A stretch of 64,000 bases of DNA, taken from an uncultured Solirubrobacterales bacterium. Lineage in GTDB: Bacteria > Actinomycetota > Thermoleophilia > Solirubrobacterales > Solirubrobacteraceae. A model generated the notes under the pieces. That model was given only the letters and a program-made list of their open reading frames with translations, had not been told where the DNA came from and made no database searches. Shown in pieces: positions 9,451-61,539 of the stretch; within the stretch, counting starts at the first letter, position 1; every line of letters starts with the position of its first letter. The stretch covers positions 1,722,140-1,786,139 of the forward strand of contig CAVRUQ010000003.1 in the NCBI GenBank assembly GCA_963724405.1, written 5' to 3'. A program made the position numbers and the translations under genes.

Positions 9451-9457
9451 GCGAGAG

Positions 9458-13487: not shown

Positions 13488-13575
13488 CGGACTGTAGCCG
13501 GTGGGACCGCTCGCGGGTACCCGCCGAGTACGCTCACGGAGCGAAGTGTCTCAGGCAAGCTGCGAAGCTTGCGCC

Positions 13576-14202: not shown

Positions 14203-14275
14203 GCCCGCCGGGCGGCCCGACCGGCCCCGCCGCCACACACGACGACGGGGCCGGCGCCACGCCTTCAGCCCGCGA

Positions 14276-16099
14276 TCAGAACGGGATCGAGGGCGGCGGC
14301 GAGGTCGTCAGCGTGTACGGATTGCCCGGGCCGGAGAACAGGAGGCTCAGGAGCGGTCCGATGATTCCGCAGCCGGTCAGCGAGGGGAACGTCGTCGTTC
14401 CGCTCGTGCTGAGCGAGGCCGAGGTGAGCTGGCCGAGCGCGATGCTCTCGTTCTGCGCGAGCGCGACCGGCTTGCTCGTGTGACAGCCGATCGGGATCGT
14501 GAGCGGACCGATGCTCGTGGAGACGAGCGTCAGGTTCGCCGACGTGCCGCCGGCGATCGTCAGCACGCCGGCGGGCGACAGCGACACGGTTCCGGTCAGC
14601 GGCCCGGTCGGTGTGAACGTCGCCCTCGACGTGATCGGGATGCCGAAGATCTTCATCGTCATCACGATCGGCGGGATGTTCGTCGTGCCCTGGAAGACCC
14701 CCGACGTGAAGTCGGCCGTGCCGCTGAACGTTCCGCCGGCCGGCAGGGGCAGCGCCAGTCCGAGCTTCTTCAGGGTCACCGAGCCGCCGAGGACCCAGTT
14801 GTTGAACGGGACGACGAAGTCGCCCGTCTCGGGCGTCGTGCGAGCGTCCGCCGGGAGTGGATCGCTCAGGTTGCAGGTGCTCGGCACCGGCTGGCCCGAG
14901 AGCCGGTCGGAGATCCAGGAGACGACGTTCGCCACCGCCGCGGGATCGGTGAGCAGGTGCTCCTCCGGGTACAGGTTGAAGTCGTCACTCACCCCCATCG
15001 CGCAGTACTGCTGCTTGAGCGCGAACTGCTGGGTCAGCGCCACGAACTCGTCATAGCGTCCGGCGTACTGGTACAGCGGCACCGGGATCGGGGATCCCCC
15101 GAGGTTGTTCTGGTTCAGGAACGAGCTGATGATCGGATCGGCCTCGAGCGTCTCCAGCGGCGTGTTCAGGTACTGGTCGATGTTCTGGTCGAGGAATCCC
15201 AACTGCGTCGCGATCGCGCACTGGCCCTCGATCGTCGGCACGATCGCCAACCCGGCGGCGTTGAACAGTCCGTTCAGCGAGATGAGATTCGGGAACGCCG
15301 TCGCTCCCCCGATGAGGCTGTAGAGCTCCAGCCCGGCGCCGACGGCGCCGTTGTCGAACCCGGCCAGCACCGACTGGTCGGCCGGCACGCCGCCCGCGGC
15401 CACGCCGATGATGTCGATCTCCGGCGCGTAGCTCTGGAAGACCTGACCGGTCCACGCGGCGGCGCCACCACCCTGCGAGTACCCCCAGACGACGACCTGG
15501 GCGCTCGGCGAGATCGGCGAGCTCGGGATCTGCTCGGCGGCGCGGAACGCGTCGAGCACGGCGTGCGCCTCGGCGAGGCCCTCGATGTAGGTCGGGGTCG
15601 CGCCGGTCGTGTAGCCCTGGTAGTCGGTGGCGACCACCGCCCAGCCCTTCTTGAGCGAGGCGACCACCTCGGCCGCGTCGTACTCGGTGCCCACGGCCAT
15701 CTGCAGCGACGGGGCGCATTGCTGCCCGAATCCCTGCGTGGCGAACGCGATGTCGATGACGGGCCGAGGTCCGGAGCCCCGCCAGGCGGCCGTCGGCACG
15801 ATCACGGTGCCGGTCACCGGATCGGGGCTCCCCTGCTCGTCCGTCGACAGATACAGCATGTCCCACGCCTTCGTGGCCGGCGCGGTCGACCCGAGGTTGA
15901 CCGTCGTCGACCGGTACTGGATCAACGTGCCCGGGTTGCCCGACGGCAACGGCGACGGCGGCTGGTAGAAGGCCAGCCCCGATGGACCGACGATCGGTTG
16001 GGCGACGGCGGATGACACCCCGGCGGCGCAGGCGAGTACGGCGACGAGCGCGGTCAGCCCAACCGTCGAGCCAACCGCGCGACTGAACGTACGCAACAT
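14276..16099 (-). CDS. Secretory lipase (LIP family alpha/beta hydrolase) with an extra ~170-aa C-terminal domain
   Basis: Signal peptide (MLRTFSRAVGSTVGLTALVAVLACAAG). GYSQGG nucleophile elbow. LIP-family-like N-terminal lid region. Start placed at the Met at 16099. Confidence 0.7.
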   Translation of the reverse strand: MLRTFSRAVGSTVGLTALVAVLACAAGVSSAVAQPIVGPSGLAFYQPPSPLPSGNPGTLIQYRSTTVNLGSTAPATKAWDMLYLSTDEQGSPDPVTGTVIVPTAAWRGSGPRPVIDIAFATQGFGQQCAPSLQMAVGTEYDAAEVVASLKKGWAVVATDYQGYTTGATPTYIEGLAEAHAVLDAFRAAEQIPSSPISPSAQVVVWGYSQGGGAAAWTGQVFQSYAPEIDIIGVAAGGVPADQSVLAGFDNGAVGAGLELYSLIGGATAFPNLISLNGLFNAAGLAIVPTIEGQCAIATQLGFLDQNIDQYLNTPLETLEADPIISSFLNQNNLGGSPIPVPLYQYAGRYDEFVALTQQFALKQQYCAMGVSDDFNLYPEEHLLTDPAAVANVVSWISDRLSGQPVPSTCNLSDPLPADARTTPETGDFVVPFNNWVLGGSVTLKKLGLALPLPAGGTFSGTADFTSGVFQGTTNIPPIVMTMKIFGIPITSRATFTPTGPLTGTVSLSPAGVLTIAGGTSANLTLVSTSIGPLTIPIGCHTSKPVALAQNESIALGQLTSASLSTSGTTTFPSLTGCGIIGPLLSLLFSGPGNPYTLTTSPPPSIPF

Positions 16100-19827: not shown

Positions 19828-20016
19828 GTTCGAGAGTCCGGCGGTGCCACGGATGCGTGTGGCCGCCCACCGCTCGGGCAGGGGGCGCCGACCGTCCGCG
19901 AGACCTTGACCCATCGCACGCCGACGGCGGAAGGAGCCGCCCGGCGCACGATCTCCCAGCTGATTCCCAGCCGGGATTAGCGCTACGCTTACCCGCTGTC
20001 GGCAGACTGCGCACGC

Positions 20017-22257
20017 GTGACCCTCCGCTCTCGCCACCGCACCGCCGCCGTGAGCGCGCTCGACGGGACGATCGTCGCGCCCGCCACGATCGCCACGCGG
20101 CCGTCCGAGCGCGACGCCTCGCGCGTGCGCGCGCTGCGTCTGCGCTATCCGGAGCTCATCCCGCTGCTGCTGCTCGCCGCCGCGCTCGATCTGTGGTCGC
20201 TGGCTCGCAACGGCTGGGCGAACGACTACTACAGCGCCGCCGTGCGGTCGATGAGCGCGAGCTGGCACAACTTCCTCTACGCGTCGATGGACCGCAGCGG
20301 CGTGATGACCGTCGACAAGCCGCCCCTGGCGCTCTGGGTGCAGGCGCTCTCGGCCCGCATCTTCGGCTACCACCCGTTGAGCATCCTCGTGCCGCAGGCC
20401 GTGATGGGCGTCGCGACGGTGGCGCTCGTCTATGACCTCGTCCGGCGGCGCTTCGGCCGCATCGGCGGACTCGTTGCCGGGCTCACGCTCGCCCTCACGC
20501 CGATCACGGTCGCGATGTCACGCCACAACAACCCCGACGCGCTGCTGACGCTCTGCTGCGTCGCCGCGGTGTGGTGCGTCGTCCGGGCCTTCGAGGACGG
20601 CCGCACGCGCTGGATCGTCCTCGCCGGCGTGTCGGTCGGCCTCGGCTTCGAAACGAAGATGGGTGCGGCGTTGCTCGTCGTGCCGGCGATCGGCGCCGCC
20701 TGGCTGTGGGTCGCCCCGCGCGGCCGGATCGCCGCGCTGCGTCAGCTCGGGGCCGGCGGCGCCGCGATGGTCGTCGTGGGCGGCGCCTGGCCGCTGCTCG
20801 TCACCCTCACCCCTGCGGCCGACCGGCCGTGGATCTCGGGCACGAGCGACAACAGCATCCCCTCGCTCATCCTCAACTACAACGGCGTCGGGCGCCTGGC
20901 CGGACAGTCGGGCGGTCCCGCCGGTGCCGGGCCGGGCGGTGGCGGTGGCGGCGGCGGGCTGTTCGGCGGCTCTCCCGGTCCGCTGCGGCTCCTCAACACG
21001 GCACTCGGCGGACAGGCGGGCTGGATGCTCGGATTCGCCGTCGTGGCCGGCCTCGGTCTCCTCGCGGCCACCCGGTTGCGCCGCGGGGATGAGCGAACCG
21101 GATGGCTGCTCGCGGTCGGCGGCGCCGGCCTGACGATCGCCGTCGCCTTCAGCGCCGCGGCCGGCATCTTCCACCCCTACTACGTCGCCCAGCTCGCCCC
21201 GTTCGCCGCCGCGCTCGTCGGCGCCGGTGCCGCGATGGTGCTCGGGCGCGCCCGCCTCGCGCGGATCCTCGCGCCGATCGCGGTGGCCGCCGGGGTCGCG
21301 AGCGAGCTGATCGTGCTCCACGACAACCCCGGTCAGCTGACCTGGCTGCCGGCGGTCCTGGTGGTCGCCGGCGTGCTCGCCGCGGCGGCGCTCCTGGCCG
21401 TCGCCGCGCCGCGGCTGCGCGTCGCGCTCGTGGCGGCGGTCGTCGGCCTGCTCCTCATCGCGCCCGCCACCTGGGCGGTCGACACGCTCGGCCACGCGAC
21501 CAGCGGCACCTTCCCCGCGGGCGGACCGGCCGATGCCGGCACCGCCCCCGGCCCCGGCGGATTCGGCGGCCCCGGAGGCCTCGGCCGCGGCTTCGGCGCG
21601 CCGGGCGCGAACGGGGCCACCGGCGGCGGCGTGCCCCTCTTCGGACCCGGTCCCGCGGGCGCGGTCCCCGGGACGCCCGCCGGCGCCGGCGCCGGCGGCG
21701 CGGGCGTTCCGGGCGCCGCGGGCGGGTTCGTTCCCGGCGGCGGCCCCCCGAGCGGCCTTGGCGCCGGCGGCGCGCGCGGCTTCGGCGGCGCGCGCGGCTT
21801 CGGCGCAGCGGGCGCCTTCGGCGGCCCGGGCGGGCCCGGTGGGTTCGGCGGCCAGGATCTCGGCGCCGAGCTGGCGTACATCAAGGCGCACGGCGGCGGC
21901 ACGCTCGCCGTGGCCAGTCAGTCGTCGGCCGCGAGCGCGATCGTCGCCGGCCAGACGAACGTCGCCGGGATCGGCGGCTTCTCCGGCAACGAGAGCGAGG
22001 TCAGCACGAGCTGGCTCGCCGGCGAGGTGCGCTCGGGGCAGATCCGATGGGTGCTCGCGAGCACGGGCGCCGCCGGGCCGCTCAGCGGCGGACGGGTCGG
22101 CGCGACCCGCGCGATGGCCGCCGTGCGGGCCGCGTGCGTCGCCGTCGCGCCGAGCGGCGCCGCAGCGACGAGCAGTTCGACGCTCAGCGGGCTCTACGAC
22201 TGCGCCGGACGCTCGGCGCAGCTGCTCGGTGCCGGCGCGGCCGGCGCCGCCGCGTGA
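20017..22257 (+). CDS. Glycosyltransferase family 39 (PMT/ArnT-like) membrane protein with a long Gly/Pro/Ala-rich C-terminal extension
   Basis: N-terminal polytopic region with GT39-like motifs (DKPPLALWVQALSARIFG..., ETKMGA). The ~330-aa C-terminal part is low-complexity GPGG-rich and is followed by a globular tail. Confidence 0.65.
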   Translation: MTLRSRHRTAAVSALDGTIVAPATIATRPSERDASRVRALRLRYPELIPLLLLAAALDLWSLARNGWANDYYSAAVRSMSASWHNFLYASMDRSGVMTVDKPPLALWVQALSARIFGYHPLSILVPQAVMGVATVALVYDLVRRRFGRIGGLVAGLTLALTPITVAMSRHNNPDALLTLCCVAAVWCVVRAFEDGRTRWIVLAGVSVGLGFETKMGAALLVVPAIGAAWLWVAPRGRIAALRQLGAGGAAMVVVGGAWPLLVTLTPAADRPWISGTSDNSIPSLILNYNGVGRLAGQSGGPAGAGPGGGGGGGGLFGGSPGPLRLLNTALGGQAGWMLGFAVVAGLGLLAATRLRRGDERTGWLLAVGGAGLTIAVAFSAAAGIFHPYYVAQLAPFAAALVGAGAAMVLGRARLARILAPIAVAAGVASELIVLHDNPGQLTWLPAVLVVAGVLAAAALLAVAAPRLRVALVAAVVGLLLIAPATWAVDTLGHATSGTFPAGGPADAGTAPGPGGFGGPGGLGRGFGAPGANGATGGGVPLFGPGPAGAVPGTPAGAGAGGAGVPGAAGGFVPGGGPPSGLGAGGARGFGGARGFGAAGAFGGPGGPGGFGGQDLGAELAYIKAHGGGTLAVASQSSAASAIVAGQTNVAGIGGFSGNESEVSTSWLAGEVRSGQIRWVLASTGAAGPLSGGRVGATRAMAAVRAACVAVAPSGAAATSSSTLSGLYDCAGRSAQLLGAGAAGAAA

Positions 22258-22316
22258 CGAGACCGGCGAGCCCCTAGGCTGTCGGCGTTCCCGTCAACGG
22301 ACCAAGGAGCTGCTCC

Positions 22317-30260: not shown

Positions 30261-30923
30261 TCAGTGCTTGCTCGCCTCCTGGGTGGCGAGCGCGAGCGCC
30301 GCGTCCCAGTCGATGACGATGTACTGGTCCCCGCGATCGGGGAGTCGCTTGGCCGGCACCGTGTTGCCCGGGTAGATGAGCGGCACGGCGTCGGCGGGCA
30401 CCGGGTTGCCCACCTGCACCTGGTAGGGCGCCCGGCCGTCGGCCATCACCGTCAGCAGGAACGCGTACATGTCCTTGCCGGCCTGGTTGCGCGTCCCGAG
30501 CGGCTGCGACTGGACGATGACGGCGCGGCAGTGCTCGCCGTATTCGAGGACCTCGGCGGCCGAGCTCGTGTTCGGATCGCCGTTCGCCGCCATCGTCACG
30601 GTCGGTGGCGCCTCGTTGAGCGACAGCGCGATCTCCGAGTGGTCGTTCGGGTTCACGCGCACGGCGACGGTCGGCTGACCGCTGATGAGCTGCGGCAGGA
30701 CGGTCGCCATGATCGCCTGGCGGCACGTGGCGGTGTAGCGCGGCTCGTTGTCGAGCTGGACCTCGACGGTGAACACGCAGACGTGCGCCGGGTTGAAGTC
30801 GGCGCCCACGCTCACCGAGGTCTGCTTGACGTCGACGATGATGCCCCGTCCGAGGAGCCCGTCCTCGAGCAGCTTCTCCGACACCGAGCCGGTCAGGTTG
30901 CGCAGCTTGCCGAACAGGCCCAT
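30261..30923 (-). CDS. Hypothetical protein with two tandem beta-barrel-like repeats (220 aa)
   Basis: Start at the Met at 30923, preceded by an AAGGAG RBS. Two similar ~90-aa segments (GRGIIVDVKQTSV... and GEHCRAVIVQSQPLG...). No database-recognisable motif. Confidence 0.4.
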   Translation of the reverse strand: MGLFGKLRNLTGSVSEKLLEDGLLGRGIIVDVKQTSVSVGADFNPAHVCVFTVEVQLDNEPRYTATCRQAIMATVLPQLISGQPTVAVRVNPNDHSEIALSLNEAPPTVTMAANGDPNTSSAAEVLEYGEHCRAVIVQSQPLGTRNQAGKDMYAFLLTVMADGRAPYQVQVGNPVPADAVPLIYPGNTVPAKRLPDRGDQYIVIDWDAALALATQEASKH

Positions 30924-31003
30924 CTGGATCTCCTTCTCGTCGTGCTGGTCTGGCGGTCGGAGCCAGTCTCGCCCCGCGCCGACCGCCGCGCAGTGCCGGA
31001 TGG

Positions 31004-31357
31004 GTGTCAACCTGCTGTCGAGTTGCTGCCGACGAGCGTGACCCTTCCGCGGGCGGGCCCGAGGCGGCTGCCGGGCGCCGAGAGTTTGATGAGATTCTCC
31101 TGCACGGTACGCGCCTCGACTGGTACAACTCCGCCGTGGCCTCTGACGAGCAAGTGTCCGGACTGTCGGGCCGGCTGACGATCGCCACGCGCGGCGCCGC
31201 CGGGCCCGGCGAGGTGAGCCTCCGCACGGCGGGTGGCACCGAGTCCTACATCGCCTTCTCCGAAGTGCCGATTCCCCGAGGGGCGACCGTGCTCGTGCTG
31301 AGCTTCGAGGGCGCCAGGACGGTCAACGTCATGCCCTGGCAGGAACCAGCCGCCTGA
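31004..31357 (+). CDS. NfeD-like OB-fold protein (short form, no TM)
   Basis: C-terminal segment GEVSLRTAGGTESYIAFSEVPIPRGATVLVLSFEGARTVNV matches the NfeD C-terminal beta-barrel pattern. Sits immediately upstream of the flotillin gene. Confidence 0.35.
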   Translation: MSTCCRVAADERDPSAGGPEAAAGRREFDEILLHGTRLDWYNSAVASDEQVSGLSGRLTIATRGAAGPGEVSLRTAGGTESYIAFSEVPIPRGATVLVLSFEGARTVNVMPWQEPAA

Positions 31358-32681: not shown

Positions 32682-33545
32682 GTGCGGGTGGCCACCTGGA
32701 ACGTCAACTCGGTCAGGCAACGCCTCCCACGGCTCCTGCCATGGCTGGACGAGCGGCGGCCGGAGGTCGTCTGCCTGCAGGAGACCAAGCTCGCCGACGA
32801 CGCCTTTCTCGAGCTGCTCGGCGACGAGCTCACCGGGCGCGGATACGAGATCGCCGTCCACGGTGAGCCGGCCTGGAACGGCGTGGCCATCCTCTCCCGC
32901 GCGGGTCTGGACGACGTGGTGAAGGGTCTTCCCGGTGCGCCGGGCTTCCCGGATCCGGAGGCGCGAGCCGTGGCCGCGACGTGCGGCGGCGTCCGCATCG
33001 TCTCCGTCTACGTCCCCAACGGCCGCGAGCCGGACTCGGACCACTACCGGTACAAGCTCGCCTGGCTCGCTTCGCTGCGCGAGACGGTGGCCGCGGGCCC
33101 CGAGGCCATGATCGTCTGCGGGGACATGAACATCGCTCCGACCGACGACGACGTGTTCGATCCTCAGGCCTACGTCGGTCATACCCACGTCACGCCCCCG
33201 GAGCGCGCCGCGCTCGCGGAGCTTCGCGATGCCGGCCTCCACGACGTCGTGCGCGACCGGTGGCCCAACGAGCGGGTGTTCACGTACTGGGACTACCGGG
33301 CCGGCATGTTCCACCAGGACCTCGGCATGCGGATCGATCTGGTGCTCGCATCCGCGAGCGTCGAAGAGCGCGTCAAGGCCGCATGGGTGGACCGTCAGGC
33401 CCGTAAGGGGCGCGGTCCGAGCGACCACGCGCCGGTGATCGTCGACCTCGACGAGGCGCCGGACGGGGACATCGGTCCGGTCGTACCGCCACCCTCTGCG
33501 CCGGTCACGGTCCGCGGGGCGGCCAAGCTGCCGCAGTCGCGCTGA
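32682..33545 (+). CDS. xthA: Exodeoxyribonuclease III (AP endonuclease)
   Basis: N-terminal VRVATWNVNS, the LQETK motif and a C-terminal SDHAPV motif. GTG start at 32682 or nearby. Confidence 0.85.
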   Translation: MRVATWNVNSVRQRLPRLLPWLDERRPEVVCLQETKLADDAFLELLGDELTGRGYEIAVHGEPAWNGVAILSRAGLDDVVKGLPGAPGFPDPEARAVAATCGGVRIVSVYVPNGREPDSDHYRYKLAWLASLRETVAAGPEAMIVCGDMNIAPTDDDVFDPQAYVGHTHVTPPERAALAELRDAGLHDVVRDRWPNERVFTYWDYRAGMFHQDLGMRIDLVLASASVEERVKAAWVDRQARKGRGPSDHAPVIVDLDEAPDGDIGPVVPPPSAPVTVRGAAKLPQSR

Positions 33546-33569
33546 CGGTTGTCTCCCCCCGTGTCCGGC

Positions 33570-34658
33570 CTACCGGCCGGGACGCTCGCGGTCGCGAGAG
33601 GGCTGTACGCGCTTCGGCTCGCCCGGCATCTTCGGGTAGTCCGGCGGGTATGGCATGTCTCCCTGACCTTCGCCGAGGTCGCGCTCGTAGAGGTCGAGCA
33701 GCGGCTGAAGCGAGTGGGCGACATCGTCGATCGTCGCGTGTCGGTCGCCGAGCTCGGCGAAGCGGGCCGGCATCGTGGCCACGGTGAAATCCTCGGGCTG
33801 GACCTCGCCGAGCTCCTCCCACGCCAGCGGGGCGGACACGGGCGCGCCGGGTTTCGGGCGCACGCTGTAGGCCGACGCGATCGTGCGGTCGCGCGCGTTC
33901 TGGTTGTAGTCGACGAAGATGCGCTCGCCGCGCTCCTCCTTCCACCACTTCGTCGTCACCTCGTCCGGGAGGCGACGCTCGAGCTCGCGTCCGAATGCGA
34001 TCGCCGCGTGACGGACGTCGGTGAACGTCCAACGCGGCTCGACGCGGACGTAGATGTGGACACCGCGGCCGCCCGAGGTCTTCGGAAATCCGAGGTAGCC
34101 GAGCTCGCCCAGCAGCGCGTGCGCCTCGGCGGCGACGCGCACGGCGTCGGCGAAGTCCGTCCCGGGCTGGGGGTCGAGGTCGATCCGCAGCTCGTCCGGG
34201 TGATCGACGTCCTCGCGCCGCACGGGCCAGGGGTGGAACGTGATCGTGCCCATCTGCGCCGCCCAGGCCACGACCGCCACCTCGGTGGGTGCGATCTCAT
34301 CCGCGTGGCGACCCGAGGGAAACTCGATCCGTGCGGTCTGGACGTAGTCGGGCGCACCCTGCGGAACGCGCTTCTGGAAGAAGGCGTCGCCGCCGCCCCG
34401 CTCGCGCGTCGACACCACCACCCCGGGATGCACGCCCTTCGTCCAACGCTCGAGTGTCGTCGGCCGGCGGCAGAGCGCCCGCATGATCCCGTCATCCACG
34501 GCGAGGTAGTAGCGCACGACGTCGAGCTTGCTCACCGCGTCCGTGCGGTCGGTCGGCGGGAAGATGACGCGGTCCGGGTTGGAGACGCGCACGTCCCGCC
34601 CACCGGCGTCGATGACAACGGCCTCAGGCCCACCCATGCCCCGGAGTTGTATCGGCAA
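33570..34658 (-). CDS. Stand-alone LigD polymerase/primase domain (NHEJ PolDom)
   Basis: KTSGGRGVHIYV signature and the surrounding primase-polymerase fold. No ligase or nuclease domain in the ORF. Confidence 0.8.
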   Translation of the reverse strand: MPIQLRGMGGPEAVVIDAGGRDVRVSNPDRVIFPPTDRTDAVSKLDVVRYYLAVDDGIMRALCRRPTTLERWTKGVHPGVVVSTRERGGGDAFFQKRVPQGAPDYVQTARIEFPSGRHADEIAPTEVAVVAWAAQMGTITFHPWPVRREDVDHPDELRIDLDPQPGTDFADAVRVAAEAHALLGELGYLGFPKTSGGRGVHIYVRVEPRWTFTDVRHAAIAFGRELERRLPDEVTTKWWKEERGERIFVDYNQNARDRTIASAYSVRPKPGAPVSAPLAWEELGEVQPEDFTVATMPARFAELGDRHATIDDVAHSLQPLLDLYERDLGEGQGDMPYPPDYPKMPGEPKRVQPSRDRERPGR

Positions 34659-34900
34659 CGGCGCTTCGGGCGCACGCCGTGGTCACACCGCTGCTGACGG
34701 TCGTCAACCTCGATCGGTTTCAATGCCGCCTTCGGGATCGGCTCGGCCGGGTCCAGCGAGGGGATAGTGTGCGTGCCCCCGGACCGGCCCTCCCCCAGCC
34801 CCGCCCTGGCGAGGATCGCCTGGAGAACGGCCCGATCGGCCGGGCGGCGGCGAATGGCCGGCTTGTGGGAGCCCGCGGCCGGCCTACCGCGGCGAGCAAA

Positions 34901-35986
34901 ATGGCGACGGTTTCAGAGGATCAGCTCGTATATGTCCATGGCGGCGAGCTCAGTCTGCGACGGGAGCAGAGCCGAGCTCATGGTGAGCTCGTCATCGTCG
35001 ACAGCGTGGGTGAGCGCGTCACGGACGACGAAACGCTGGCGCGGATCAAGGCTCTGGCGATCCCGCCGGCGTGGACGGACGTCTGGATCGCCCTTGACCC
35101 GAACGCGCACCTGCAGGCGACCGGGCTCGATGCCAAGGGGCGACGCCAGTACCGGTATCACCCGCTCTGGCGGGCGCGGCGCGACGAGGAGAAGTTCGAG
35201 GACATGCTCGAGTTCGCGCAGCGGCTGCCAACGGTCAGGTCAACGGCCCGAGAGCTTCTCGGCTCCGACAGCCCACGTCGAGAGCACACCCTCGCCCTTG
35301 CGGTTCGGTTGCTCGACATCGGGTTCTTCAGGGTGGGATGGGATCGGTACGCGCGCGACAACGGCCACGTCGGTCTCACCACGCTGCGGCGCGAGCACGT
35401 GTCGGTCCGCGGCTCGGAGATCCACTTCGACTACATCGCGAAGTCCGGCAAGCGCCGTCGGATGGTGGTGAGGGACCCCCAATCGAGACAAGCCCTCGCC
35501 GCGCTCAAGCGCCGCCGCGGTCTGCCGGACGAGCTCCTCGCCTACCGCTCGCGGGATGATTGGCGGCGCGTCCACGCCGCCGACGTCAACGATGCCATCC
35601 GCAGCTGGGCTGACGGCCCATACTCGGCCAAGGAGTTCCGCACGTGGGCGGCGACGGTGCTCGCAGCGGTCGCGCTCGCCCGCCAGCACGCTTGCGCCAA
35701 GAGCGGCCAGCGGGCGGTCAATCGGGCGGTGCGCGAAGTGAGCACGGCGCTCGGAAACACACCGACGGTGGCCCGGAAGAGCTACATCGATCCGCGTGTG
35801 ATCAGCCGGTTCGAGGAGGGCGTGGTCATCGATCTTGCCGACCGAACGCCCGCAGCCGCCGCCCCGCTGCGCATCGAGTCGACCGCCGACGGCATCGTGA
35901 TCGAGATGCCGACCGACGTGGACGGCGATGCGATTCGCCTCGAGACCGAGCGGCAGGTGTGGGACCTGCTGCGGACGGGGACATAA
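34901..35986 (+). CDS. DNA topoisomerase IB (poxvirus-type)
   Basis: Motifs LAIPPAW, DAKGRRQYRYHP, GLTTLRREHV, FDYIAKSGKRR and a C-terminal NTPTVARKSYIDP containing the S-K-x-x-Y catalytic tyrosine motif. Start at the ATG at 34901. Confidence 0.8.
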   Translation: MATVSEDQLVYVHGGELSLRREQSRAHGELVIVDSVGERVTDDETLARIKALAIPPAWTDVWIALDPNAHLQATGLDAKGRRQYRYHPLWRARRDEEKFEDMLEFAQRLPTVRSTARELLGSDSPRREHTLALAVRLLDIGFFRVGWDRYARDNGHVGLTTLRREHVSVRGSEIHFDYIAKSGKRRRMVVRDPQSRQALAALKRRRGLPDELLAYRSRDDWRRVHAADVNDAIRSWADGPYSAKEFRTWAATVLAAVALARQHACAKSGQRAVNRAVREVSTALGNTPTVARKSYIDPRVISRFEEGVVIDLADRTPAAAAPLRIESTADGIVIEMPTDVDGDAIRLETERQVWDLLRTGT

Positions 35987-36139: not shown

Positions 36140-37930
36140 TCATCGGCCGAGGTCGAGCAGGTCCTGGTACAGGGCGAGTGAGGCCTCGGCGATCCGCTCG
36201 ATGACAGCCTGCTCGCCCGGGCCGGCGGCGACGACCGGCAGCCAGACGACTCCCTGCCGCGTGACATTGACGTCCCGGTCGCGCTCGAATTGATCGGCGA
36301 TCGTGAACCAGCCGGCCGGCCTGCCCGCCCGTTCGACCGCTGCGCCCCGGTCGGAAACCGATGTCCGCTGCGCCCGGTGGGTCACCGTAACCGTGACCGG
36401 CTCGCCTGGCCCGTAGGCCAGTGCGGTCGTGACGGTGTCGTCGGTGCGCGCCTCGTGAGCGGCAAGGAGGAGCTGCGCCCTGGTCTGACCGTGGTGCTCG
36501 GCCCACCCGGCCGGCGTCGCGTCGTGGCCCGTGTCGCGCAGATTCGGGTTCGCGCCGTGGTCGAGCAGCAGCTCGGTGATCGCGAGGTTGCCTCGCATCG
36601 CCGCCTCGTGCAGCGGAGTGGTCCGTTCACGAGCGTTGACGTCGAAGCCGAGCTCGATCAGCTGCCGGACGCCCTCGACGTTGTCGCGGCGTGCGGCACG
36701 GATCAGCTGCGCTGGCTCACGGGCGATCGCGCGCTCGACGAGGGCCGGGTCGCCGGCGCGCATCGACTCCACCCTCTCGCGGTCGCCGGCCGTGGCGGCC
36801 GCCAGGAAGGCCTGGACGTCGTCGAGCGCCGAGCGCGCCCCGGCGACTTCGAGCATCGCCACGATCTCCTGGTCGCCCGACACCGCTGCCTCCTCGATCG
36901 GCGAGCGGCCCTCGTAGGTCGGGTGGCGGCTGCCCGTCCCGTCAGGGTCGGCTCCGTGGTCGAGCAGCAGCCGCACCCGGTGGGCGCGGCCATGGCCCGC
37001 GGCAGCCATCAGCGCGTCCTCGAGCATCTGCCGCGGACTGTCGTGTCGTTCTCCCAGCAGCCGGCGCCACGGCCCGCCGTCGCCGCGACCGAGCCCGAAC
37101 TCGAGCAGTAGCCTGAGCCATTCGTCGCCCGGGAAGCCGCCCATGTTGTAAACGGTCTGACCGTCGTTGGGATCGGCGCCGCGCTCGAGCAGTAACCGGG
37201 CGATCCGCAGGCCGTCCGGGTGCGCCGGGTCCGTGCCCTCGCCGCTGCCGAAAGCGCCGGTCAGGGCGGTGAACGGCGGGCACAGGCCCTCCCACAGAAA
37301 TCCGGCGTTCGGATCGGCGCCGTGGTCGAGCAGCAGCTCGGCGGTCTCGAACGCCGCCGGCGCCGCCACGCGCGAGTAGGTCAGATACAGCAGCGGCTGC
37401 CAGCGGTGCGGACCCGACGGGACCCGAACGGCACCCGGATCGCGCAGCAGCAGCTCGCGAGCCGCGTCGAGCGCGCCGACCGCGGCCATCGTGGCCAGGT
37501 TCGCCGTCGCGAGCTCCGGGGCGACGGCGAGCATCCGGTCGGCCTCCGCCCACCGAGCGGGTTCGTCGCCGCCGTAGGTCAGACACGCGAGTCGCAGGAA
37601 CTCGTCGGCCGGGCTCTCGCTCGGACCGACTTCATGCGGGGAGCGGGCAAGCGGCGCCACCAGCTCGAGGTGGGCCTTCAACGTCGGCCAGCTCGCGAAC
37701 CCGAACCGGCGCGCGATGACGAGCAGCGCATCGGCACGCGAGAACACGGCAAGCTCCGGCGAGCCGACAGTCGCGTCCCCGAGGCGGGGGTGGAACTCGC
37801 GCACGACCGCGGCGGCGCCGGCGTCGCCGGCGCGGACGGCGCGCTGGAACGACTTGGCACCGTTCTTCAACCGCTCCAGGTTGGCGTTGCCGGGAAGTCC
37901 GCGGGGTGGCACGTAGGCCTCCTTTCGCAC
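36140..37930 (-). CDS. Ankyrin repeat domain-containing protein (596 aa)
   Basis: Multiple ankyrin consensus repeats (TPLHEAAMRGNLAITELLLDHGANPN, LLLDHGADPDGTG, LLLERGADPNDG). Confidence 0.75.
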   Translation of the reverse strand: MRKEAYVPPRGLPGNANLERLKNGAKSFQRAVRAGDAGAAAVVREFHPRLGDATVGSPELAVFSRADALLVIARRFGFASWPTLKAHLELVAPLARSPHEVGPSESPADEFLRLACLTYGGDEPARWAEADRMLAVAPELATANLATMAAVGALDAARELLLRDPGAVRVPSGPHRWQPLLYLTYSRVAAPAAFETAELLLDHGADPNAGFLWEGLCPPFTALTGAFGSGEGTDPAHPDGLRIARLLLERGADPNDGQTVYNMGGFPGDEWLRLLLEFGLGRGDGGPWRRLLGERHDSPRQMLEDALMAAAGHGRAHRVRLLLDHGADPDGTGSRHPTYEGRSPIEEAAVSGDQEIVAMLEVAGARSALDDVQAFLAAATAGDRERVESMRAGDPALVERAIAREPAQLIRAARRDNVEGVRQLIELGFDVNARERTTPLHEAAMRGNLAITELLLDHGANPNLRDTGHDATPAGWAEHHGQTRAQLLLAAHEARTDDTVTTALAYGPGEPVTVTVTHRAQRTSVSDRGAAVERAGRPAGWFTIADQFERDRDVNVTRQGVVWLPVVAAGPGEQAVIERIAEASLALYQDLLDLGR

Positions 37931-38170: not shown

Positions 38171-39127
38171 TCACCGGCGGGTCGGCGAGAGCTCCCGCCG
38201 CGCCTGGGCGGCGAGGCGCTCGGCACGATCGCCGACCTCCTGGACGCGTACGAGCGCGTCTGCGACCGACCGCCGGCCGGTGCAGACCGACCAGCACTCG
38301 AGCATCGTTGGGCGCCCCCTGATCGCACCGGCCAGTCGCGCCAGCTCGCCCTCCTCGAGGCGGACGTGTCTCCGATACCGGGAGCTGACGACGTCGATCA
38401 GGCGTGGGTGCATCGAACCGGCGGCCCACAGCAGGACGCCGATCGCCCACACACGCGGTCCGCGTCCGGCGCCGGCCCAGTCGACGATGACGAGCTGCTC
38501 GTCGGCGGTGGGGATCGCGTTGCGCAGCACGAAGTCCGGGTGCACGAAGGCGTGCGGCAGGTCCGAGCAGTCGTCGCTCCGCTCGACCAGGTCGCAGAGG
38601 CGGTGGTAGTCGCCGAGATCGCGCAAGCCGATCTGGGACGCGTGCTCCTCCAGCAACTGCCGGGCCGCAGCGATCTCGTGTGCCGGCCCGCCGGTCGGCG
38701 AGAGGTGGTGCCAGGCGCCGCCCGCGCGCAGCCCCTCGGCCGAGTGGGCGCTGAGCCGTCCCAGCAGCGCACCGAGCAGTGCGGCCGAGCGGCCCGGCCG
38801 CAGCGGCGCGGCCGGCTCGACGAAGCCCGTCACGAGCACCGGCCGCCCGTCGAACATCGACACCGGATCCGCCGCAGCACAGCGCTCGGCGGGGAAGCCG
38901 CCGCGCTCGAGCGCCCGGAGGATCTGGGCGTCGGCCTCGGCCTCCGCGACCGGCCGGGCGCCGCTGAAGACGCGCGCGACCCAGCTCGGCCCGTCGGCGC
39001 GATCGATGCGCACCACGCTGACGTCGAGCGCCGCGGTCGCGGTCACCGCAACCCCGTAGCGGTCCGCCAAGTGCTCCGCGAGGCGGTCGCCGTTCACTGA
39101 TTCAAGGACGCCAGGGGCTGCCGTCAT
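38171..39127 (-). CDS. Aminoglycoside phosphotransferase-like (APH/CotS family) kinase
   Basis: Brenner motif region HPDFVLRNAI and VDWAGAG (APH-type catalytic loop and DFG-like). Start at the Met at 39127. Confidence 0.65.
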   Translation of the reverse strand: MTAAPGVLESVNGDRLAEHLADRYGVAVTATAALDVSVVRIDRADGPSWVARVFSGARPVAEAEADAQILRALERGGFPAERCAAADPVSMFDGRPVLVTGFVEPAAPLRPGRSAALLGALLGRLSAHSAEGLRAGGAWHHLSPTGGPAHEIAAARQLLEEHASQIGLRDLGDYHRLCDLVERSDDCSDLPHAFVHPDFVLRNAIPTADEQLVIVDWAGAGRGPRVWAIGVLLWAAGSMHPRLIDVVSSRYRRHVRLEEGELARLAGAIRGRPTMLECWSVCTGRRSVADALVRVQEVGDRAERLAAQARRELSPTRR

Positions 39128-39247
39128 GCGCCTCAACTCTGAACGATGGCCGGCGCGTCGGCATCGATGGCCTCCCGCGCGCATCGGCATTCGCCCCCAG
39201 GACGAAGCCGTCCGCCGACGAGCAGCCATCGCTCAACCGCTCGTCCT

Positions 39248-45945: not shown

Positions 45946-46476
45946 TCAATCCTCGCGTCCGGTGGAGAGGGAGAACCAGCTGGCGCCGAACACGGCGCCG
46001 TCCCTCTCGGGCGCGAACGGGATTCCGGCCGCGACCGCGCGGGGTACGACCACCGCCGCCTGGGCGGCACGATTGAGACCGAGCATCAGCAGGATCGCCG
46101 CGATGCCGGCGGCGACGTGCGCGCCCGCCGCGTTGGCGATGCCGCTCACTGCCAGGCGGCTGATGAACAGCCCGCCCCACAGCCACAGACCCTGCTTGGG
46201 GAGCTGCGCCCACAGAGATCCGGCGCGGCGCTCCAGGCGCGTCATCGCGCCGAGCCCGGCGCCGGTCGCGATGGCTACGGCCGCGCTCACGACCAGCAGC
46301 ACGATATCCATCGCATGCGGGTGCGAGTTGTGGCCGCTGATGTCGAGGATCCCGATGACGGTCAGGACGGCGGGCAATACGACCAGACGCTTGCCGCTCA
46401 CCGCGCCGCCGACCAGCTGCTGACCGATCGCGTAGACGATGATTCCGATTGCGCCCAGCGCTGTCAGAAGGGACAT
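45946..46476 (-). CDS. Small membrane protein (DUF1453-like)
   Basis: Four hydrophobic helices. Start at the Met at 46476 with an AAGGAGG RBS. The function call is weak. Confidence 0.4.
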   Translation of the reverse strand: MSLLTALGAIGIIVYAIGQQLVGGAVSGKRLVVLPAVLTVIGILDISGHNSHPHAMDIVLLVVSAAVAIATGAGLGAMTRLERRAGSLWAQLPKQGLWLWGGLFISRLAVSGIANAAGAHVAAGIAAILLMLGLNRAAQAAVVVPRAVAAGIPFAPERDGAVFGASWFSLSTGRED

Positions 46477-46851
46477 CTCCAGACCTCCTTGGCGGGTCGA
46501 TTCACGGTCCCTGACGCTACGGCGCCGCGGCCCCGCGCACATCGGTCCACGGCTTGATCTGCGGGTTGATTCCGGGTGGAGATCCGGGTTGAGAGCAGGT
46601 TGAGGCCTGCGCTGCGATCAACCGACGGTCACGCACAAACCACCCGGCTCGGCGCTCCCCTTGACGAAGCGCCGGACGCTTCAGGCCGCGAGCAGCGCGG
46701 CGAGACCCCCGGCGTCCGCGGCGGACACCGGGTGCACGATCACGACGCGTACGGTGAGATCGTCGGCCAGGAGCAACGAGGCGCTCTCCAGCGTGGCCGG
46801 AAGATGTCACATCTGGCGCGCGGTCTGTCGCTGAGCGGCGGGGAGGACAAG

Positions 46852-50860: not shown

Positions 50861-50981
50861 GCCTCGACACCAGCCGGCACGATGCGGATGGGTCGGTCCG
50901 TATCAGGTTTGGCGGGCCGGCGCTCTTCGTCTTTGAGCACCGACCCGATCGGTTCACCACACGCCAAGACAGGGGAGTTCG

Positions 50982-53087
50982 ATGAGTCCTCAGCCACCCG
51001 AGTTCGAAGCGGGAGGGGCACCCAAGCTCCCGCGCGAGCGCGCGCATTTCACCGAGCTACTGCTCGCCAACCACTTCAAGGAGATTGCTGCTCCGGCGGA
51101 GGGGACTCCGCCCGAGGGCAACACGACCTACGAACAGCTCACGTGCATCGGCTATCAGCCACAGCTCGGCCAGCTCAACGCCGTCGTGAGCCTCAAGCAG
51201 GCGAACGGCTACTCGGGCGGGATCTGCAGTGCCGGCTCGCAGGAGTACGTGAAGTTCTTTGCCTCGACCGACGGCGGTGCAACATGGACCACGCTTGGCG
51301 TCACCTCGTTCACCTCCCGGGACGTGGCCGGACCGAAGCCCCTCGAGTTCGACGTCACCCTTCCGGTCGATCTGGCCCAGGCGTGCTGCAAGAAGGAGAA
51401 CCTCGTCCTCATCCGCGCGATCCTCTCCTGGCGGGTGCCGCCGGGCGGCGCCACCGACCCGGTGGTGTGGGGCAATGGCGTCGACGCCTACGTCCAGGTC
51501 GCTCCGCTGACGCTCGGCACCCTCACCGAGGTCTTGGAGTGCCTGGAGATCCCGCTTGAGCCCCACGTGCTCAGCGAAATCGCCAACCCCGAGCAGATCG
51601 TCGAGTTCGGTCCCGCCAAGCCGCTCACGCCGCTGCAGCTGCACGAGCTCTACCGCGACACCGACATTCCCCAGCATCGGTACCTGCTCGGCCCCGTGGC
51701 GCAGCTGCTGGCCGATCCGGTGGCCCTCGGCGCCGCGGTCGACCAGCCTGGGCTGCAGCTGTTTCCGGGACTGCAGGGCATCGCCGAGATCGGATCGATC
51801 GTCGGCAGCATCCTGGATCCGCAGGGCAACGAGACCTACGAGCAGCTCGGCTGCATCGGGCTGAACCCGAGCACCAGCGCGCTCGTGGCCACGATCGACG
51901 TCAAGCAGTCGGCCGGGTACTCGGGCAGCCTCTGCACCAGCGGCAGCCAGGAGTACGTCGCCTTCTGGGCCGACTCCGGGAGTGGCTACGAGTACGTGGG
52001 GACGAGCTCGGTCAACGTGCACGACCTCCCGTCGATCCCTGCCGGCGGCGTGCGGTACTCCGCGGCGCTGCCGTTCCCGCAGGCGCTCACGCAGCGCCGG
52101 GCATGCACCGACGGACCGAACACGGTGGCCATCCGGGCCGTGCTGTCGTGGGCGACGCCCCCGTCGGACACGAACCCGTACGCGGTTCCGGTCTGGGGCG
52201 GGCATCTGGAGGCGACGGTCCTCATCCCGCCCGGCGAGCCGGTCATGCCCGGGGGCGGCCCGGACCTCGAGTCCATCGGCAACATGCCGATCGGCCTCAT
52301 CGACCAGGGGACCGGCCTGGCCACCGGCCAGTCGCTGGCCACGTTCGTCGCCACCGCGTCGCCGTTTGGCGGAGTCGTCAACTTCAGCGGGCACGTGATC
52401 AATCCGTCGGGTGGCGTGGGCGGCACCGGCCTCAGCTACCGGATCCTCATCAGCACCGACGGTGGCGTCACCTCGACGCCGATGACCGCGCCGTTCCACG
52501 TCGAGACGAACAACTGGATCACCTCGGTTCAGACGTCCGTCCTGCAGACACCCGACTCGTCCGGGTGGGTCAGCTGCCTGGAGAACTACGCCGCGAACAC
52601 CGACGTCGTCGGCAACCTGCTCGGCCAGTGGACGACTGCGGGCAACGGACAGCTGTGGGTGGCGATGGAGGCTCGTCAGGGCTCCACGCCCCTCGGTCCC
52701 GCGATGCCGACGTGGACGCTCATCCAACTGGACAACACCGCCCCGTCTCCGGTCACGGTGGAGATCACCAGCGGCGGCGGCTCGTGCGGCGACTTCCAGC
52801 CGGGAGCGCTCATCGAAGGCACCTACTCGGCGGCCGACAACGAGGATCTCCGGGCCGTGAGCATCGCAGTCGAGATGCCGATGCCCGGGTCGACCCTGAC
52901 CAAGGTGCCGACGTTCACCAGCCTGACCAGCGAGTCGGGCACGTGGAGCCTGCAGACGCTGCCGACGACGGAGCCGTGCGGGTACACGATCGTCGCTCAG
53001 GCCAGCGACAACACGATCGTCAACAGCGGGTTCGTCGGCTGGACCACGGAGGCCTTCACCGGTCTGTGCCTGCGGCCCGCCACGTGA
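50982..53087 (+). CDS. Uncharacterised 701-aa protein with an internal tandem duplication of a ~205-aa domain
   Basis: Residues ~47-250 and ~284-490 are clear paralogous repeats (NTTYEQLTCIGYQPQ...YSGGICSAGSQEYVKFF... versus NETYEQLGCIGLNPS...YSGSLCTSGSQEYVAFW...). Conserved Cys pairs. No signal peptide at the annotated start. Confidence 0.5.
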   Translation: MSPQPPEFEAGGAPKLPRERAHFTELLLANHFKEIAAPAEGTPPEGNTTYEQLTCIGYQPQLGQLNAVVSLKQANGYSGGICSAGSQEYVKFFASTDGGATWTTLGVTSFTSRDVAGPKPLEFDVTLPVDLAQACCKKENLVLIRAILSWRVPPGGATDPVVWGNGVDAYVQVAPLTLGTLTEVLECLEIPLEPHVLSEIANPEQIVEFGPAKPLTPLQLHELYRDTDIPQHRYLLGPVAQLLADPVALGAAVDQPGLQLFPGLQGIAEIGSIVGSILDPQGNETYEQLGCIGLNPSTSALVATIDVKQSAGYSGSLCTSGSQEYVAFWADSGSGYEYVGTSSVNVHDLPSIPAGGVRYSAALPFPQALTQRRACTDGPNTVAIRAVLSWATPPSDTNPYAVPVWGGHLEATVLIPPGEPVMPGGGPDLESIGNMPIGLIDQGTGLATGQSLATFVATASPFGGVVNFSGHVINPSGGVGGTGLSYRILISTDGGVTSTPMTAPFHVETNNWITSVQTSVLQTPDSSGWVSCLENYAANTDVVGNLLGQWTTAGNGQLWVAMEARQGSTPLGPAMPTWTLIQLDNTAPSPVTVEITSGGGSCGDFQPGALIEGTYSAADNEDLRAVSIAVEMPMPGSTLTKVPTFTSLTSESGTWSLQTLPTTEPCGYTIVAQASDNTIVNSGFVGWTTEAFTGLCLRPAT

Positions 53088-53442: not shown

Positions 53443-53807
53443 GCTGCTGCGGCGCTAAGCGCGAGACACTGAAGCGAGGTGGGACGGCGACCTCGGGGCG
53501 TGCGTCGCAGTCGCCTCGCGCGGCGGGGGCAGCGCCGGCGCCTGTGCGGGACCCCGGGTCGGGCAGGAGTGTGGCCATCCTGGCATACCTCGCGCGCAAT
53601 GCGCCCGGGCGCAAGGCGTGAGCGGGACGTGGCTGACCGTGCGCGGCCGCCACGACGGCTCGACCTCCCGATCACGAAAGGCCGCAGAGACAAATGAGGG
53701 CCAGCTGACGATCGCATCCAACGACTGCGTCGTCGCCAGCCCGCCCGACGCTGGTAGGGTGGCCACCACCGTCCGATCTGGGACGGGACGTTGCGCAAGG
53801 GGGCGTC

Positions 53808-54389
53808 ATGACGAAGAAGGCGATCAGACGCGCAGCCACGGCTGGGGCTCTCGCGTTGGGCCTCTTGCCGATCGGAGCAGTCGCCGCGCCGCCGACGCCG
53901 GCGACCGCGCACGCCGGTTACGTCGGCACGGTGAGCGGCAGCCGGGCCTTCGTCGCCGTCGTAGTGAACGGCGGGAGCGTGACGGCCTACGTGTGCGACT
54001 CGCACTCGGTCGCTCGGTGGTTCAGGGGAACGGTCCACGGTGGACGGGCCACGCTCGAGTCGACCACCGGCGACTCGGTCCTGGCAGTCACCGTCGCGCA
54101 GCGGCGGGCAACGGGAACCGTCCGCCTTGCCGGCGTGACGCACTCCTTCTCGGCCACCCCCGACGACGGGGAGGCGGGCCTGTATCGCGGCACCAGGACC
54201 GCGGCCGGTCAGCGGTATCTCGGCGGCTGGATCATCCTGCCCGACGGGCGCCAGCGCGGCGCGGTCGTCTCCGGTTCCACAGTGGTGGCCAGCCCCACGC
54301 TCAACCCGAACGACCTGACGGTCGACGTCAAGCCCAAGGACATGCCGAAGCACGTGGTCATCGCCATCATCGCGATCCTCATCGGCTGA
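53808..54389 (+). CDS. Signal-peptide protein with a C-terminal TM anchor (193 aa), uncharacterised
   Basis: N-terminal signal peptide (AGALALGLLPIGAVAAPPTPATAHA). C-terminal hydrophobic anchor HVVIAIIAILIG. The C-terminal 50 aa is duplicated at 60470-60645. Confidence 0.5.
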   Translation: MTKKAIRRAATAGALALGLLPIGAVAAPPTPATAHAGYVGTVSGSRAFVAVVVNGGSVTAYVCDSHSVARWFRGTVHGGRATLESTTGDSVLAVTVAQRRATGTVRLAGVTHSFSATPDDGEAGLYRGTRTAAGQRYLGGWIILPDGRQRGAVVSGSTVVASPTLNPNDLTVDVKPKDMPKHVVIAIIAILIG

Positions 54390-54761
54390 GCGCGCCGGCT
54401 GCGAGGTCTCCCATCAATCGGGTAGGGGCCGGGCGGCCCCGGCCCCTCCCACACCACCGGACATGCGGGTCGTCCCAGAGACTCCCGCAGAGGCCTCCCG
54501 GGATAAGGCCAGCCACCTTCCTCGCGCACCCGCCGCATTTACGTGACGGCCCCCTGATGACATCGGGCTTCGCCATATCGTGCTGGCTCGCCCAGACCGC
54601 CCCGCCTCTGATGCGATTCGTGTCCCTCGGGTCGCGATTTTCGCCTCCGGCTTCCTTCCCACCCCGCCTCACGACGACGCAGTTGCCCTTGACTTGTGGT
54701 TGGTGTCATCAACCTCCACAGGGGACTCGCACCCCCAAGCGGCTGGTCATGCCCGGCGTAC

Positions 54762-54893
54762 ACGCCGAAGGCCGCCCTCGCGGGCGGCCTTCGGGTCTCA
54801 GTCGGCCTCCGTGCGGGCCCTTTCGGGCCTCGCGCTGCGGTCGGCCGGGATAGCGGGGGCGGGATCCGAAACCCGCGACCTTCGGTTATGAGC
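54762..54893 (-). repeat. Repeat A: hairpin flank plus degenerate tRNA-fMet 3-prime half
   Basis: Contains GCCGAAGGCCGCCCTCGCGGGCGGCCTTCGGGTCTC hairpin, GGCCTCCGTGCGGGCCC..., CGGTCGGCCGGGATAGCGGGGGCGGGATCCGAAACCCGCGACCTTCGGTTATGAGCC. About 90% identical to copy D. The anticodon stem is disrupted. Confidence 0.8.
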
Positions 54894-54920
54894 CAAGACG
54901 GGGTCCTGCTGAGCGGAGCG

Positions 54921-55547: not shown

Positions 55548-55579
55548 GGTGTGCTGTCTCCTGCGGCTTGGGGATGGGA

Positions 55580-61465: not shown

Positions 61466-61539
<74 letters not shown>

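Follow-up and report, generated by a model that had tools for sequence, protein, structure and literature searches.

A 64,000-nucleotide stretch of contig CAVRUQ010000003.1 from an uncultured Solirubrobacterales bacterium was analyzed and is referred to here as the window (GC content ~72%). It contains two divergently oriented genes, a stand-alone primase-polymerase gene (33570-34637, minus strand) and a gene for a bacterial type IB topoisomerase (TopIB; 34901-35986, plus strand), and homologues of both were found in Solirubrobacteraceae/Solirubrobacterales (Thermoleophilia, Actinomycetota) genomes and in soil metagenomes. Our comparisons revealed that both genes belong, as ordinary members, to known families and that their arrangement is not conserved. 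The conserved unit at this locus is formed by the polymerase gene, an orthologue of mycobacterial Prim-PolC, and the exodeoxyribonuclease III gene (xth) on its other side, not by the polymerase gene and TopIB. A preliminary description of this DNA had reported a gene encoding only the polymerase domain (PolDom) of LigD, head-to-head with a TopIB gene. That arrangement was confirmed, with divergent open reading frames (ORFs), PF21686 alone in one product and PF21338 plus PF01028 in the other, and the quoted peptides present. The features of the locus are as follows:

32682..33545, plus strand: exodeoxyribonuclease III gene (xth), 287 aa (NCBIfam TIGR00633, Pfam Exo_endo_phos)
33546..33569: 24-bp spacer between the stop codons of the convergent xth and Prim-PolC genes (from ORF coordinates)
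33570..34637, minus strand: Prim-PolC orthologue, a stand-alone primase-polymerase of the archaeo-eukaryotic primase (AEP) type, 355 aa (PF21686; PDB 6SA0/5OP0)
34645..34658, minus strand: promoter-like motif TTGCCGATACAACT, core GTA[C/G]AACT, conserved among relatives' loci
34659..34900: lineage-specific intergenic part with a synteny breakpoint, without similarity to relatives' upstream regions
34901..35986, plus strand: bacterial type IB topoisomerase gene, 361 aa (PF21338 + PF01028; 2F4Q)
36140-37930, minus strand: ankyrin-repeat protein gene, 596 aa, convergent with TopIB

At its longest the polymerase ORF spans 33570-34658 on the minus strand, with a TTG start and a product of 362 aa. 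We placed the start at the ATG at 34637, which gives a 355-aa form identical to public protein P0271; an exact-protein look-up of the 362-aa form gave no match. The TTG at 34658 was rejected as a start, as it falls within the conserved motif, which is non-coding, and the corresponding frame of a related locus (L082) meets a TAG stop. The TopIB ORF extends from 34679 or 34901 to 35986 on the plus strand, with the conserved protein beginning at the ATG at 34901; the 361-aa form was covered over 97-100% by homologues of 350-370 aa, and the codon-position GC of 34679-34900 was non-coding-like. The public TopIB start at GTG 34769 (P0001, 405 aa) appears less likely, as its N-terminal extension is not common to the homologues. 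The spacer between the two genes is most likely 263 bp (34638-34900), measured from the ATG at 34637. The earlier figure of ~240 bp agrees with the 242 bp given by the longest ORF, and the spacer would be 131 bp if GTG 34769 were right. The xth ORF opens at 32646, and its likely start, GTG 32682, gives a 287-aa product matching those of relatives. This product was an equivalog-level match to TIGR00633 (236 bits; cutoff 99) and TIGR00195 (207 bits; cutoff 183).

The polymerase ORF had LigD_Prim-Pol (PF21686, E 2.9e-88) as its sole Pfam domain, without a ligase or phosphoesterase (PE) domain. When all PDB sequences were searched, its best matches were to Mycobacterium smegmatis Prim-PolC (6SA0/5OP0, E 7e-116), with which it shares 57% identity over 329 aligned aa, whereas matches to LigD-type PolDoms were far weaker (E 5e-41 for 5DMU, 1e-35 for 2FAO and 1.5e-27 for 2IRU). 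The AEP catalytic motifs (DxD, SxH and hD) are represented by RIDLDPQPG, KTSGGRGVHIYV and FVDYNQN, each aligned with its M. smegmatis counterpart. Loop 3, at the C terminus, is also present (GQGDMPYPPDYPKMPGEPKRVQPSR aligned with GLGDLPYPPNYPKMPGEPPRVQPSK), with P320, K324 and R331 kept and the “pin” residue N321 changed to Asp. R179 and W219/W220/K221 of Prim-PolC are retained, and the 5'-phosphate pocket is partly conserved (N20 kept; K23R, Y25I, K35V, P65T; an alignment gap lies nearby). Loop 3 (residues 313-333) has been described as unique to Prim-PolC and as needed to fill gaps of >1 nt (PMC7442782). Because the E-value was far better against Prim-PolC than against LigD PolDoms, and because Loop 3 is present, we conclude that the window polymerase is, as judged from its sequence, a Prim-PolC orthologue and not the PolDom of a LigD acting in non-homologous end joining (NHEJ), which is what the preliminary description had taken it to be.

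Like M. smegmatis Prim-PolC (PolD1, MSMEG_6301; 5OP0, 6SA0, 6SA1), the window protein is stand-alone, is ~350 aa long, and keeps DLDP, SGGRGVH and DYNQN. Unlike the M. smegmatis gene, the window gene is convergent with xth and has no adjoining LigC gene. The window polymerase and the LigD PolDoms of M. tuberculosis (2IRU) and Pseudomonas aeruginosa (2FAO) belong to one AEP fold family (PF21686) and have the same catalytic motifs, but the LigD PolDoms lack Loop 3. A candidate identity as an NHEJ LigD PolDom, fused to or operonic with the LigD ligase or PE and with Ku, was rejected: the protein is stand-alone and none of these genes occurs in the window. Indeed, six-frame tblastn of the 64 kb with Pfam-verified queries gave no match for Ku, ligase or PE, and the sole match to PolDom queries was the polymerase itself, so that the earlier statement that ligase and Ku are absent from the window holds. 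Pfam scans agreed, identifying ordinary chromosomal genes among ~40 other window ORFs; for ORFs in 19976-22278 and 53709-64000, coverage was by the tblastn search for the four gene types alone.

The partner of Prim-PolC that recurred in our comparisons was xth. Prim-PolC is 84-91% identical across many Solirubrobacteraceae, and we examined six related lineages (L082, 90%; L083, 88%; L151/L152/L153, 84-86%; and P0272, 91%, on contigs L168-170). With the window included, xth was tail-to-tail with Prim-PolC in 7/7 lineages, with spacers of 3-28 bp in the relatives; in L152 xth had been overlooked by the gene caller and was recovered by tblastn. The gene upstream of Prim-PolC was a different one in every genome examined, and the gene order of L083 matched that of the window further on the xth side only. 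TopIB was near Prim-PolC in none of the six related lineages; the sequence covered comprised 8-10 kb of flank at each of the five long loci and, in L168-170, 242-768 bp upstream of Prim-PolC. In one lineage (L153), an AbiEi_4/MTES_1575 gene (abortive-infection antitoxin-like, 9106-10041) is inserted between Prim-PolC and xth.

The adjacency of xth fits the published role of Prim-PolC in base excision repair (BER). In mycobacteria, Prim-PolC and LigC act in BER (PMC5663958), with the Prim-PolC step coming once EndoIV, ExoIII or XthA has cleaned the 3' end (PMC5663958), and the polymerase fills gaps of 1-3 nt with a preference for ribonucleoside triphosphates (rNTPs; PMC5663958, PMC7442782). By analogy with that system, exonuclease III in this organism would clean 3' termini at sites that are abasic or damaged. 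Prim-PolC would then fill gaps of 1-3 nt, preferably with ribonucleotides, via Loop 3 and its grip on the 5'-phosphate, and the nick would be sealed by an ATP-dependent ligase encoded elsewhere. Prim-PolC and Xth would cooperate in short-gap BER here, as in mycobacteria. The conserved pairing with xth is an independent fit to the BER role of Prim-PolC and would extend it beyond mycobacteria. Among the relatives' loci, no ligase was present within 8-10 kb of Prim-PolC in L082, L083, L152 and L153. The L151 locus has a gene for a three-domain ATP-dependent DNA ligase (3051-4565) 3.4 kb upstream of Prim-PolC and one for a DinB/IMS polymerase (13524-14702) 4.3 kb past xth, so that repair genes seem to be clustered there.

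The topoisomerase proved to be a typical member of its family. It matched Top1B_N_bact (PF21338, E 7e-22) and Topoisom_I (PF01028, E 6e-30) in Pfam and the Deinococcus radiodurans TopIB structure (DraTopIB; 2F4Q) at E 1e-48. The preliminary description had named RKSYIDP as the catalytic motif, and the catalytic Tyr of DraTopIB indeed has its aligned counterpart in the Tyr of ARKSYIDP. The pentad is complete, with R144, K181, R247, N286 and Y295 aligned with the R-K-R-N-Y motifs of DraTopIB. Across 52 aligned, diverse homologues, R144, K181, R247 and Y295 were invariant and N286 was ≥90% conserved. The window TopIB is thus similar to DraTopIB and the poxvirus-like bacterial TopIB family in its two domains, its pentad and its length of ~350 aa, and with the full pentad it is predicted to be an intact relaxing enzyme; relaxation by this family needs no ATP and proceeds via a 3'-phosphotyrosyl intermediate. 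The Solirubrobacteraceae TopIB clade is distinct, as the window protein shares 65% identity with the nearest 50%-cluster representative and 54% with the next. We know of no physiological role for any bacterial TopIB. Apparent TopIB fusions (P0205, P0149, P0255 and others) were considered as repair fusions and rejected; their extra domains (glycosyltransferase, SelA_N, ADH) look like artefacts of gene calling.

Comparison of TopIB loci revealed a variable context. A PolDom gene was present in 0/8 loci whose TopIB is 66-73% identical to that of the window and which have usable upstream sequence (L002-4, L086, L087, L088, L090, L092), and these eight had no other gene in common with the window. 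Their neighbors, either small and stress-type or unrelated, were DUF1232, DUF2461, DJ-1/DUF2188, DUF2267, cupin and NTP-transferase genes, and context differed even among relatives 66-79% identical. In L091 a PE-domain gene lies downstream of TopIB, and the upstream sequence there is too short for a PolDom check. The TopIB/Prim-PolC pair recurred only in L001, a 2.6-kb contig with identical proteins. None of the relatives examined has the ankyrin-repeat gene (36140-37930) 3' of TopIB; a cupin gene or other genes occupy that position.

Similarity of the window to its Prim-PolC relatives ends at ~34657, and L167, the closest TopIB locus, is similar from ~34909 onward; we therefore place a synteny breakpoint within the intergenic region. 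On the Prim-PolC side, the core GTA[C/G]AACT stops 7 nt short of the ATG and is kept in six Solirubrobacteraceae loci (at window-equivalent positions in L082, L083 and L151-153, with minor variation in L152), and upstream of the motif the sequence is not conserved between loci. Judged from its position and conservation, the motif is possibly a compact promoter, and it would be compatible with a leaderless transcript. The segment 34659-34900 had no similarity to the relatives' regions upstream of Prim-PolC or TopIB, and the TopIB upstream regions of nine relatives had nothing in common with the window. Within the spacer we found no sigma-70 consensus, no terminator, no LexA/Cheo box at ≤3 mismatches, no convincing PafBC-type motif and no Rfam match, and its inverted repeats were weak and GC-rich. 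A shared operator or bidirectional promoter was rejected on these grounds, there being no known box and no conservation past the 14-nt Prim-PolC-proximal motif.

These observations bear on the possibility, raised by the preliminary description, that TopIB and an NHEJ LigD PolDom form a fixed module, perhaps with a shared LexA or other operator in 34659-34900. The divergent genes with their spacer of 131-263 bp would suit such a module, and a TopIB-PolDom unit does exist in Rhizobium (see below). However, the polymerase is of the Prim-PolC type and not of the LigD type, the pairing is missing from all relatives examined (0/6 Prim-PolC lineages, 0/8 TopIB relatives), no operator was found in the spacer, and the promoter-like motif of Prim-PolC is self-contained. 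A fixed module in this lineage is consequently very unlikely. A common mobile origin, in which the pair came on a plasmid, phage or island, had also been proposed. In its favor, 376 plasmid records, most of them from Alphaproteobacteria, carry TopIB, which is common on the megaplasmids and chromids of this class. At the window locus, though, no mobile-element signature was found. Pfam scans of the window ORFs revealed no integrase or transposase near the pair, and no tRNA lies close by, the only one being at 61466, 25 kb away. The GC content at third codon positions of both genes (0.84-0.90) is like that of their neighbors, and phage matches amounted to a single weak one. In addition, Prim-PolC is highly conserved in the family (84-91% identity) and the xth side is syntenic with L083. 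We regard a mobile origin as extremely improbable.

We surveyed TopIB loci of species-representative genomes (80 loci) and of metagenomes (67 loci), with neighboring gene calls checked by Pfam. In a first pass with the window polymerase as query, a PolDom was found within a few kb of TopIB in 6/80 genome loci. The second pass used Ku, PE, ligase and PolDom proteins from Pfam-annotated first-pass loci as queries. The nearest such gene was ≤2.5 kb from TopIB in 12/80 genome loci (360 kb surveyed) and farther out in one (remaining 882 kb of flank). The corresponding figures for the metagenome loci were 8/67 and 0. Such neighbors are hence enriched ~30-fold within 2.5 kb of TopIB, as counted without phylogenetic correction in a sample dominated by Actinomycetota, and ~85% of TopIB loci are without one. 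The arrangements observed in individual loci were:

L011, L019: ku→topIB, 29-bp gap
L015: PE-ligase→ku→topIB→(one gene)→PolDom
L016, L006: topIB, then a PE-ligase gene; L016 additionally has ku and PolDom
L113, L117: PE, ligase and PolDom genes upstream of topIB, opposite strand
L124, L126, L133 (37-38% GC): Ku and PolDom close to topIB, the PolDom being PE-fused in L124/L126, plus DUF892/DUF2383 stress genes
L060 (Blastococcus): downstream Ku and LigD, at 2-3 kb
L071, L091, L138: stand-alone PE adjoining topIB
L020: second Prim-PolC-type gene, 1.9 kb from topIB

Ku/LigD NHEJ operons thus adjoin or contain TopIB in L011, L015, L016, L019, L060, L113, L124 and L133. The window differs from these operons in having no Ku, LigD ligase or PE gene. 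In a neighbor-joining tree of TopIB, one Thermoleophilia clade was mostly NHEJ-linked and the other linked cases were scattered. A Prim-PolC-type gene was near TopIB in only 1/147 other loci (L020). In Solirubrobacteraceae genomes, TopIB falls into at least two lineages with ~50% identity between them; the lineage of L008/L011/L015/L019/L035 is embedded in NHEJ loci, and that of the window is found in variable contexts. Genes of the UdgX family of uracil-DNA-binding/glycosylase proteins recurred in TopIB flanks (L021, L022, L028, L032, L057, L139, L157, L158, L159). RNase HII, PolX and DinB were sought as recurrent TopIB neighbors and appeared as single cases only.

The plasmid and chromid loci, of which we inspected 13, lend the family-level linkage independent backing. 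In Rhizobium leguminosarum and R. johnstonii the gene order is glgX→topIB→“ligD” (L158, 6986-8868; L162, 3986-5868), where “ligD” encodes a 292-aa stand-alone PolDom (PF21686, E 1e-90) and overlaps topIB by 4 bp. Within the R. leguminosarum/phaseoli group, 96 plasmid records carry the topIB-PolDom segment at ≥80% coverage. In records of the R. etli type, topIB occurs without PolDom, which we interpret as loss of PolDom. As in the window, TopIB in the Rhizobium unit is directly paired with a stand-alone primase-polymerase of the LigD family. Unlike in the window, where the genes are divergent, the Rhizobium genes are co-directional, and the Rhizobium PolDom has no Loop 3 and shares 31% identity with the window polymerase. 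To our knowledge, the glgX→topIB→PolDom unit has not been described.

Other plasmid loci combined TopIB with further repair genes. In L160 (Bradyrhizobium japonicum plasmid pS11L-1, 2646-8047), PolX, MOSC and two-domain ATP ligase genes are present and RNase HII is divergent from topIB; at 1633-2281 there is also a degraded second ligase. This combination points to functions in the repair of ribonucleotides and gaps. In Phaeobacter, UdgX and a radical-SAM “DNA modification/repair” gene precede topIB, which is followed by a ligase-associated exonuclease and an ATP ligase. In the other eight plasmid loci topIB was located amid general-stress genes (CsbD, ferritin-like, DUF2934, CBS, BON) and trehalose/glycogen genes (otsA/otsB/treZ/glgX), plus unrelated genes. 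An EcfG-type consensus, GGAAC-N16-17-CGTT, was found just upstream of glgX-topIB or topIB in 6/13 loci (L157 ~4750, L158 ~4764, L161 ~1760, L162 ~1757, L164 ~4823 and L165 ~4910; rhizobia, Sulfitobacter and Paracoccus), of which the four rhizobial ones are orthologous. The chance expectation is ~0.005 per region. In Sinorhizobium meliloti, the ku and ligD genes are controlled by the EcfG general-stress sigma factor RpoE2 (PMC6379672).

Taken together, the surveys showed that TopIB does have recurrent neighbors of the LigD PolDom kind, with Ku, LigD, PolDom or ATP-ligase genes beside it in several phyla and in the 96 Rhizobium records, so that the outcome which the preliminary description had named as its refutation did not occur. 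The general tie between TopIB and an NHEJ primase-polymerase that the preliminary description had proposed accordingly stands as a recurrent linkage of TopIB with the LigD family in bacteria, but not in the subtype of the window polymerase or in a fixed pairing. Full-text searches (subscription journals outside coverage) retrieved no literature linking bacterial TopIB with NHEJ, LigD or Prim-PolC. The family-level association of TopIB with NHEJ, AEP and ligase genes, including the Rhizobium unit, is apparently undescribed.

One explanation for the window locus is pure coincidence, with neutral rearrangement having put TopIB beside Prim-PolC without regulatory or functional meaning here. This would account for the confinement of the pair to this genome among the loci examined, for the absence of any conserved or recognizable shared element between the genes, for the high variability of TopIB context within its own clade, and for the rarity of nearby Prim-PolC-type genes at other TopIB loci. 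Yet random placement beside one of the few AEP/NHEJ genes of a multi-megabase genome has a probability of ~1e-3, the TopIB family as a whole has the enrichment given above, and L020 provides a second, independent case of TopIB/Prim-PolC proximity. On balance we consider coincidence a rather unlikely explanation.

At the other extreme is direct mechanistic coupling, in which TopIB would share its repair reactions with AEP polymerases and ATP ligases. Type IB topoisomerases have ribonuclease activity, and eukaryotic Top1 and vaccinia TopIB incise at ribonucleotides. In one version of the coupling, TopIB would incise at ribonucleotides inserted by Prim-PolC or LigD-Pol, and ExoIII or the LigD phosphoesterase would heal the resulting 2',3'-cyclic-phosphate nicks before refilling and ligation. 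In the other, TopIB would relax or process DNA at Ku-bound ends. The tight ku→topIB arrangement with its probable co-transcription, the 4-bp topIB→PolDom overlap in Rhizobium, the position of TopIB between Ku and PolDom in L015, the divergent RNase HII beside PolX and ligase on the B. japonicum plasmid, and the stand-alone PE domains adjoining TopIB in three loci are all consistent with coupling, as is the preference of Prim-PolC for rNTPs (PMC5663958). Conversely, the large majority of TopIB loci are without such a neighbor, many have general-stress genes only, Deinococcus has TopIB without Ku or LigD (review, PMC6300522), and the literature searched yielded no biochemical or genetic support. 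We consider direct coupling unlikely.

A further reading is that TopIB serves as an accessory enzyme of stationary-phase repair by AEP polymerases and ATP ligases, that is, of Ku-LigD NHEJ and Prim-PolC-type gap repair. TopIB might incise at polymerase-inserted ribonucleotides and pass 2',3'-cyclic-phosphate ends to PE or ExoIII, or it might act on Ku-bound DNA, and the TopIB/Prim-PolC/xth cluster of the window would be one instance of the partnership. This remains a doubtful proposition in our estimation.

We favor, with some reserve, a history in which two separately transcribed chromosomal genes were joined by a lineage-specific rearrangement, so that they are loosely co-localized and do not form a fixed module. 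The adjacency in the window most likely represents the loose co-localization of enzymes used on non-replicating DNA. Across the family, TopIB genes gravitate to Ku/LigD NHEJ clusters, stand-alone PolDoms, ATP ligases and UdgX genes, and also to stress islands with trehalose/glycogen, CsbD and ferritin-like genes, several of which lie behind an EcfG-type consensus in Alphaproteobacteria. The window TopIB would then be part of a stationary-phase/stress DNA-maintenance gene set, and it is possibly co-expressed with Prim-PolC; an obligatory TopIB-polymerase machine is unlikely.

Several points weigh against this history and the functional context we attach to it. The TopIB relatives closest to the window (L084, L085, L167; 78-79% identical) have ≤331 bp of upstream sequence each, and because of this a narrow sub-clade could carry the TopIB/Prim-PolC pair. 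Co-regulation of the two genes in this organism is something we only infer. No operonic LigC-type ligase, which mycobacteria have with Prim-PolC, was found in the window. The L020 Prim-PolC, 47% identical to that of the window, has no adjoining xth, and the conservation of the Prim-PolC/xth pair covers one family (≥84% identity), so that it may be plain inherited synteny. The composition of the survey sample belongs here as well.

Overall, the TopIB adjacency in the window is a one-off, and it is the survey that provides a lead on the role of bacterial TopIB. The strong enrichment of TopIB near Ku, LigD, PolDom and ATP-ligase genes, and its presence in stress/desiccation islands, suggest that the enzyme acts alongside those of end joining and gap repair on DNA that is not replicating. 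Rhizobium strains with the topIB-PolDom unit are tractable and would allow a direct test of this idea. Elsewhere in the window, four ORFs were coding-like in codon composition and had no Pfam match (50937-53087, plus strand; 45946-46617, 38171-39229 and 30261-31010, minus strand), and the last of these has a homologue in L083 at 78% identity.

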